From a virus (Duplodnaviria > Heunggongvirae > Uroviricota > Caudoviricetes): a stretch of DNA of 8,827 bases. The position numbers were made by a program, and so were the translations under genes. Each line of letters starts with the position of its first letter. Position 1 is the stretch's first letter. The notes beneath the pieces were generated by a model. It ran no database searches and was not told the DNA's origin. It was given only the letters and a program-made list of their open reading frames with translations. Positions 7,358 to 7,938 of the stretch are shown here, one piece after another. The DNA lies in the IMG/VR virus record IMGVR_UViG_2667527792_000005. One strand, written 5' to 3'.

Positions 7358-7358
7358 N
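7358..7358. other. Ambiguous base (N) at the breakpoint between pflB and unrelated sequence
   Basis: Literal n; pflB frame is intact to 7357, then the context changes. Confidence 0.9.
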
Positions 7359-7412
7359 GAGGATTTTGTTATTGAAATTCTTTGCGCCACCAATGCTCTC
7401 TTTGTATCCCGC

Positions 7413-7610
7413 CAGTAATTTATCTGCCAGCAACGCATTTACGCGTAGATAGCCGTCCCAGGCAGGACGCTGAAATTGCACCAGATCGAGCCGATAATGA
7501 AAAGCGGGCCAGAGAACGGCATTGGAGAATTGGTTGTAGTATTCGTCAAGGTCCTGTTCGCTGAGGTTAAAAGAGGCCCACGTAATGTTACCTTTTTTCA
7601 CCTTTTTTAG
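7413..7610 (-). pseudogene. otsA: Internal shard of otsA (trehalose-6-phosphate synthase), ~65 codons
   Basis: Minus-strand translation LKKVKKGNITWASFNLSEQDLDEYYNQFSNAVLWPAFHYRLDLVQFQRPAWDGYLRVNALLADKLL matches OtsA as recalled. It diverges on both sides: 5' gives SPLSVRI with a stop instead of the OtsA N-terminus, and 3' gives AGYKESIGGAKNFNNKIL instead of the conserved DIIWIHDYHL. Confidence 0.75.
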
Positions 7611-7938
7611 AATACGGACTGATAAGGGTGATTATTGGCTCTGGCGACGGCTTTCAGAACCTCTTTCACCATTCTGGTGTGGACTTTCTGGTGCTCCAGG
7701 TTGTGTGACATGGGAACTCATTCTGGATGGTTACTCTGAAAGCTCATATTCTGCCACCCCCCGATTTGCAGCCGCCAGGCTGCCGTGGTTCAAGTCGCGA
7801 CTAATAAAAATAATCAGGTTGCCATGATTCAATGTACACCTTTCTCACATTCGTCTCCGGCATGAAAACGATGCACTCTTTCTTTATCGCTTTCACTACA
7901 CATTTTATCCTCGCATGGATGTTTTATAAAAAACATGA

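Follow-up and report, generated by a model that had tools for sequence, protein, structure and literature searches.

The window (the whole 8,827-bp stretch of DNA analysed here) is very probably a chimeric contig, that is, an artefact of library preparation and/or assembly rather than a structure present in the cell. Within it, the stretch from 7358 to 7611 is one linker between a block ending in pflB and a block carrying the heat-labile enterotoxin (LT) locus elt. It is neither a pflB-otsA fusion nor a new element, and it is not a biological feature. The pattern of block, shard, shard, and block, together with Ns on the seams, extends through the whole 8.8-kb draft contig and therefore points to a chimeric contig rather than to an unusual rearrangement. 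An internal fragment of the essential single-copy gene ileS, the truncation of eltA, recE, and pflB, and the lack of any in-frame fusion support the same reading.

Composition of the window

The window is composed of ten pieces in the order ccmC, ydhQ, Rac prophage, malF, garR, ycaN-pflB, yqeI, otsA, elt, and ileS (Table 1). These represent ten unlinked loci, of which nine are chromosomal and one is plasmid-borne. Each of them has a 100% match in some finished genome, with the exception of the elt block, which shows 3 nt differences. Identity between shard and parent is 100% from end to end, so the arrangement is not a chance similarity.

Table 1. Pieces of the window and ambiguous characters at their seams
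Feature	Position	Strand	Remarks
ccmC (heme exporter), internal fragment	1-99	-	100% over 99 nt in 5,421 genomes
ydhQ 5' end (77 nt) plus 107 nt upstream, 184-bp shard	100-283	-	100% match
Rac-type prophage block	284-4201		recE (first 595 codons), racC, ydaE, kilR, sieB, ydaF
NN	4202-4203		Rac/malF seam; parents GCCG and AACG, window NNCG
malF, internal fragment, 80 bp	4204-4283	-	100% in 5,417 genomes
garR, internal fragment, 174 bp	4284-4457	+	100% match
N	4459		garR/ycaN seam
ycaN (first 45 codons), ycaK, pflA, pflB (codons 409-760)	4460-7357	- (pflB)	native block
N	7358		pflB/yqeI seam; parents GGA (pflB) and TGA (yqeI), window NGA
yqeI, internal fragment, 54 bp	7359-7412	-	YqeI aa 133-150, native frame; 54/54 identity
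otsA, internal fragment, 198 nt, 66 codons	7413-7610	-	OtsA aa 53-118; 100% identity
Repeated-element terminus, about 181 nt	7611-7791	-	adjoins IS91-family transposase pseudogene in pB7A_66
elt upstream region and eltA codons 1-231 of 258	7792-8720	+	plasmid LT locus
N-A-N	8721-8723		eltA/ileS seam; parents ATATC and AAAGC, window ANANC
ileS (essential gene), internal fragment	8724-8827	-	100% over 104 nt; reaches contig end

Three of the pieces are long genuine blocks, namely the Rac prophage (3.9 kb), ycaN-pflB (2.9 kb), and the IS91-family end with eltA (1.1 kb). The linkers consist of two short shards each: ccmC and ydhQ (283+ nt), malF and garR (254 nt), and yqeI and otsA (252 nt). The ccmC fragment lies within the ccmC coding sequence of strain E2865 and reaches the contig end. 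The Rac block is found at 100% over 3,918 nt in many genomes, including that of the enterotoxigenic (ETEC) strain ATCC 43896. Its recE (284-2069) is cut at codon 595 of 866, such that the C-terminal nuclease part is missing, and acquires 23 further codons from the ydhQ shard (213-283) to yield a 618-aa open reading frame (ORF). At the opposite end of the window stands the ileS fragment; an intact ileS is presumably present elsewhere in the same assembly, the gene being essential.

A 12-nt exact repeat, CTTTGCTGCATC, is common to the ccmC shard (4-15) and the ydhQ shard (186-197). Chance alone would yield about 2 such pairs in a sequence of 8.8 kb, so that it is probably meaningless.

The stretch between the pflB and elt blocks

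The pflB block is native up to its last base. Strain 13C1079T matches 4460-7357 contiguously and at 100% over 2,898 nt (BLAST, complete E. coli genomes), and base-level alignment to the native copy shows that residues 409-760 of PflB are kept on the minus strand and that the first 408 codons are absent. An earlier note on this DNA had placed the cut in pflB at the N at 7358, followed by two foreign shards on the same strand. Both statements are borne out: identity to the native locus is 100% through 7357, and the shards behind the N derive from yqeI (7359-7412) and otsA (7413-7610).

The ycaN-ycaK segment of this block (4460-5323) is polymorphic. At least 80% of 4460-7357 is found in one place in 3,104 of 5,426 genomes, and in lower-ranked genomes, O157:H7 and UPEC strains among them, the match starts only at about 5310 or 5324. 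Host pflA-pflB (window 5324-7360) also occurs at 99% in the INPHARED records ON470599.1 and ON470623.1 (vB_EcoM-569R5 and vB_EcoM-705R2), which are presumably either induced-prophage records with host flank or wrongly delimited records.

The 54-bp shard next to pflB had been called unrecognised. It is, however, an exact internal fragment of yqeI (54/54) in its native frame, with the minus-strand translation AGYKESIGGAKNFNNKIL. The gene is annotated as encoding a winged-helix regulator. BLAST finds yqeI in 3,679 of the 5,426 complete E. coli genomes, and in 3,045 genomes the match is at 99% identity or more. Such a patchy distribution is consistent with the location of yqeI in the variably present ETT2 island.

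The otsA shard, translated as LKKVKKGNITW...ADKLL, is present and exact as originally described, although its length is 66 codons (7413-7610) and not 65. BLAST against the complete genomes delimits otsA identity to 7410-7610, and the sole apparent otsA mismatch, at base 7412, is the last base of the yqeI piece. The loss of OtsA identity had been put at about 7610, where a stop codon was thought to appear. Identity indeed ends exactly at 7610, but the in-frame stop is located at 7632-7634, which is 7 codons beyond that point. A TAA at 7607-7609 lies inside the otsA shard in a different frame, and it ends a 34-aa minus-strand ORF (7607-7711) that comes from the elt block. Two simpler origins of 7359-7610 had been named from the start, and neither is found among the 5,426 complete genomes. 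Contiguous otsA sequence is ruled out by the confinement of otsA identity to 7413-7610, and pflB-flanking sequence is ruled out because pflB identity stops at 7357 and 7359-7610 adjoins pflB in 0 of 5,426 genomes.

The three gene fragments share one strand, and those of yqeI and otsA are mutually in phase, features that would accord with a real pflB-otsA or pflB-yqeI-otsA fusion gene. However, the PflB codons are not in phase with those of yqeI and otsA ((7412-7356) mod 3 = 2), and therefore no fusion protein is encoded. What the frame does contain is a chimeric 94-aa ORF on the minus strand (7317-7601, MKKGNITWASF...), which starts at a GTG internal to otsA, runs through the intervening 18-codon YqeI piece, and terminates 13 codons past the N at 7358; no other record carries it. 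The in-frame stop at 7632-7634, the small share of each protein represented (66 of 474 residues of OtsA and 18 of 269 of YqeI), and the recurrence of the arrangement in 0 of 5,426 genomes likewise speak against a fusion gene, the probability of which is close to nil. At the level of the protein, a pflB-otsA fusion is refuted by the reading-frame analysis. The original view that the arrangement is due neither to a natural fusion of pflB with otsA nor to a simple inversion is upheld.

The elt block (7611-8720) is 99.7% identical to the ETEC plasmids pB7A_66 and E275a. It differs from pB7A_66 at 3 nt (8023, 8600, and 8668), with a single residue change in EltA, D214G in precursor numbering. EltA, the A subunit of the heat-labile enterotoxin (coding sequence at 8028-8720), is cut after codon 231, leaving 27 C-terminal codons missing, and the record is without eltB. 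The block opens with the terminus, about 181 nt long, of a repeated element. This terminus includes codons 1-34 of a hypothetical 90-aa gene and ends in GTTC at 7788-7791 on the plus strand.

Read from the 7788-7791 end, the element terminus starts with GAAC followed by CACGGCAGCC and is about 95-100% conserved. The same 181 nt are found in nine other contigs with nine different flanks, and the common part starts GAAC/CACGG, presumably the complement of the GTTC target of IS91-family elements. The flanks include type IV secretion system (T4SS) genes, a phage integrase region, a fimbrial usher operon, a colicin gene, ermC, and ospC. All nine contigs end at the base equivalent to 7610, and a fixed break there was considered and rejected. 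In the cluster listing, contig-end partial products span 28-56 aa; thus, the exact agreement at 7610 is a selection effect of the exact-sequence look-up. A weaker claim is sound, namely that the 7610/7611 seam lies where short-read assemblies often break contigs. The position of the left end of the elt block in this zone of frequent breaks fits a genuine contig whose end received a foreign extension.

An IS91-family end with its GTTC target (7611-7791) directly adjoins the otsA shard, as would be the case if one-ended rolling-circle transposition near elt had captured the other pieces and built the mosaic on an LT plasmid. Such a capture is extremely unlikely. The 7610/7611 seam is not at the terminus of the element, which is the sole one present and is cut about 181 nt inside its end; no mobile-element terminus is located at any seam, and the other eight seams touch no element end. 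Moreover, the seams show neither repeats nor duplications, and none of the plasmids in PLSDB has otsA, yqeI, or pflB adjoining elt.

Seams and their formation

The ten pieces meet at nine seams (99/100, 283/284, 4202, 4283/4284, 4459, 7358, 7412/7413, 7610/7611, and 8722). The non-ACGT characters of the window (4202-4203, 4459, 7358, 8721, and 8723) fall into 4 clusters, all of which lie within 0.5 nt of a seam, a coincidence with a chance of about 1e-10. They mark 4 of the 6 block-shard seams and 0 of the 3 shard-shard seams. At three of the four N seams, the Ns replace exactly those bases at which the two parents disagree, and the agreed bases are kept (NGA, NNCG, and ANANC). For the garR/ycaN seam to obey this rule, the source strain would have to carry T at 4458. 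This placement at parental disagreements is the signature of a consensus conflict or of an overlap merge.

Base 4458 is T in the window and G in K-12 garR, a change that would be synonymous (GTG to GTT). Either the T is a strain SNP at the final garR base, or it is the first base of the ycaN-side piece, in which the native sequence is TTT.

The five seams without N are blunt, with 0 nt common to both parents. Microhomology, shared k-mers, direct or inverted repeats, and target duplications were searched for at the seams, and none was found. Adapter and vector remnants are likewise absent from the seams, and an Rfam scan of the window returned no family. The native parents have no common restriction site and no shared breakpoint motif at any seam. 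A concatemer of restriction fragments (3C/Hi-C, SSH, or a restriction-digest library) was accordingly rejected, given the lack of a common site at the parent breakpoints.

In shotgun libraries, ligation chimeras arise when blunt-end cloning or blunt adapter ligation joins fragment to fragment. The window resembles such chimeras in its random breakpoints and blunt joins, which have neither microhomology nor a common restriction site, and in the size of its concatenated short pieces (252, 254, and 283+ nt), about that of one insert or read. In contrast to them, it retains no adapter or vector remnant, and the likeness is one of sequence rather than of known library chemistry. In a de Bruijn assembly, blunt seams free of N need real spanning reads. 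It is therefore probable that some of the chimerism, at least, was physically present in the DNA of the library, whether ligated in vitro or in the cell.

The most likely route to the chimeric contig would begin with over-fragmented DNA of 54-200 bp, whose blunt ends would have been joined to one another while the library was made. The resulting concatemers, roughly of insert or read size, would overlap true contig ends and bridge loci, and the assembler or scaffolder may have crossed these bridges to the next locus. At positions where the chimeric join met competition from true-locus reads, the consensus would become N. At the IS91 repeat boundary there may have been no unique competing reads, which would account for the lack of an N at 7610/7611. 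As to the source of the shards, their 893 nt in total, homopolymer runs included, contain no mismatch or indel. Single-pass error rates of 454 or Ion Torrent would predict mismatches or indels over such a length, which argues against single-pass reads of either kind.

The main variant of the artefact is a pure scaffolding error, in which tiny genuine contigs (54-200 bp) would have been abutted via spurious read-pair links and the 0-3 Ns at each seam would stand for near-zero or negative gap estimates. It needs no physically chimeric DNA. Its probability is a share of that assigned to the artefact as a whole and not an addition to it, and the variant is possible but doubtful. The Ns lie exactly on seams, as it would predict, and the draft that yielded the record is highly fragmented. 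Negative gaps that stay unresolved are written by SSPACE and ABySS as a single n. The joins also resemble those of Scaffold_builder (PMC4177539) in having 1-3 Ns exactly at some joins, with the other joins abutted, and published scaffolders are known to insert Ns or to place contigs directly against each other where overlapping fails (PMC4177539). However, the Ns in the window replace mismatches within a pseudo-overlap of 3-5 nt, more like consensus masking than a gap placeholder, and five seams have no N. Furthermore, contigs of 54 and 80 bp are too short to be output or scaffolded by most assemblers, each of nine seams within 8.8 kb would need a spurious link of its own, and the regularity of the two-shard linkers, about 250 nt long, is more suggestive of single chimeric molecules.

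Mis-joined contigs from short-read or low-coverage shotgun drafts offer the broadest parallel to the window. They share with it unlinked neighbours, N-marked joins, and chimeric sequence at block ends, as well as the small size and high number of the contig and one break where a repeat (IS) ends. Reported misassemblies mostly consist of a single join at a repeat, in contrast to the nine seams in 8.8 kb and the regular two-shard linkers seen here.

It is very unlikely that the isolate underwent a genuine complex rearrangement, in which serial template switching (MMBIR- or chromoanasynthesis-like) joined Rac, pfl, and elt with short templated insertions from yqeI, otsA, malF, garR, and others. 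An equally low probability attaches to a real mosaic made by chromothripsis- or chromoanasynthesis-like religation that captured yqeI, otsA, malF, garR, ccmC, ydhQ, and ileS, with the Ns as low-quality calls. The N-free seams are precise, all of the pieces are E. coli DNA at 100% identity, and shards of 54-198 bp resemble templated insertions; several short segments from elsewhere between larger blocks are also what MMBIR/FoSTeS and chromoanasynthesis produce. Template switching typically leaves 2-5 nt of microhomology, however, in contrast to the 0 nt shared at each of the five seams without N. The donor loci are spread across the chromosome and a plasmid, other seams are marked by Ns, and a duplicated fragment of the essential ileS would be required. 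The structure, with shards at both ends of a short contig from a poor draft, has no independent occurrence and is present in 0 of the 5,426 finished genomes.

Occurrence in sequence collections

An exact look-up of the 618-aa RecE-ydhQ ORF leads to one place, contig CDRT01000476.1 of the draft assembly GCA_001373215.1. The window is the reverse complement of this entire 8,827-bp contig, number 476 of its assembly, and is thus represented by one sample only. The contig starts and ends within shards, and its source is a fragmented draft of an LT-positive E. coli.

Neighbouring pieces of the window stand side by side in 0 records among 5,426 complete E. coli genomes, 72,556 plasmids (PLSDB), and 50,697 phages (INPHARED). 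With seam-spanning queries, no record covers 80% or more of any query, and the best single place corresponds to one block, 44% of the window. In exact scans, the yqeI/otsA junction string is absent from viral, GTDB-representative genome, and metagenome collections, and the otsA/elt junction string is absent from genome and metagenome collections.

The spurious chimeric ORFs of the contig are already in public protein collections, which makes the record a matter of data hygiene. The stored products are the 618-aa RecE with its ydhQ-derived tail (a member of a RecE cluster), the 94-aa OtsA-YqeI hybrid, and truncated EltA and PflB. Such a record could mislead pan-genome work, the analysis of virulence-gene context, in which LT would appear beside chromosomal genes, and screens for fusion genes. 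Ns on the seams between 100%-identity pieces of unlinked loci provide a usable filter for records of this kind.

Several PLSDB entries are "plasmids" of 4.8-4.9 Mb with chromosomal loci, and they look like chromosomes filed as plasmids.
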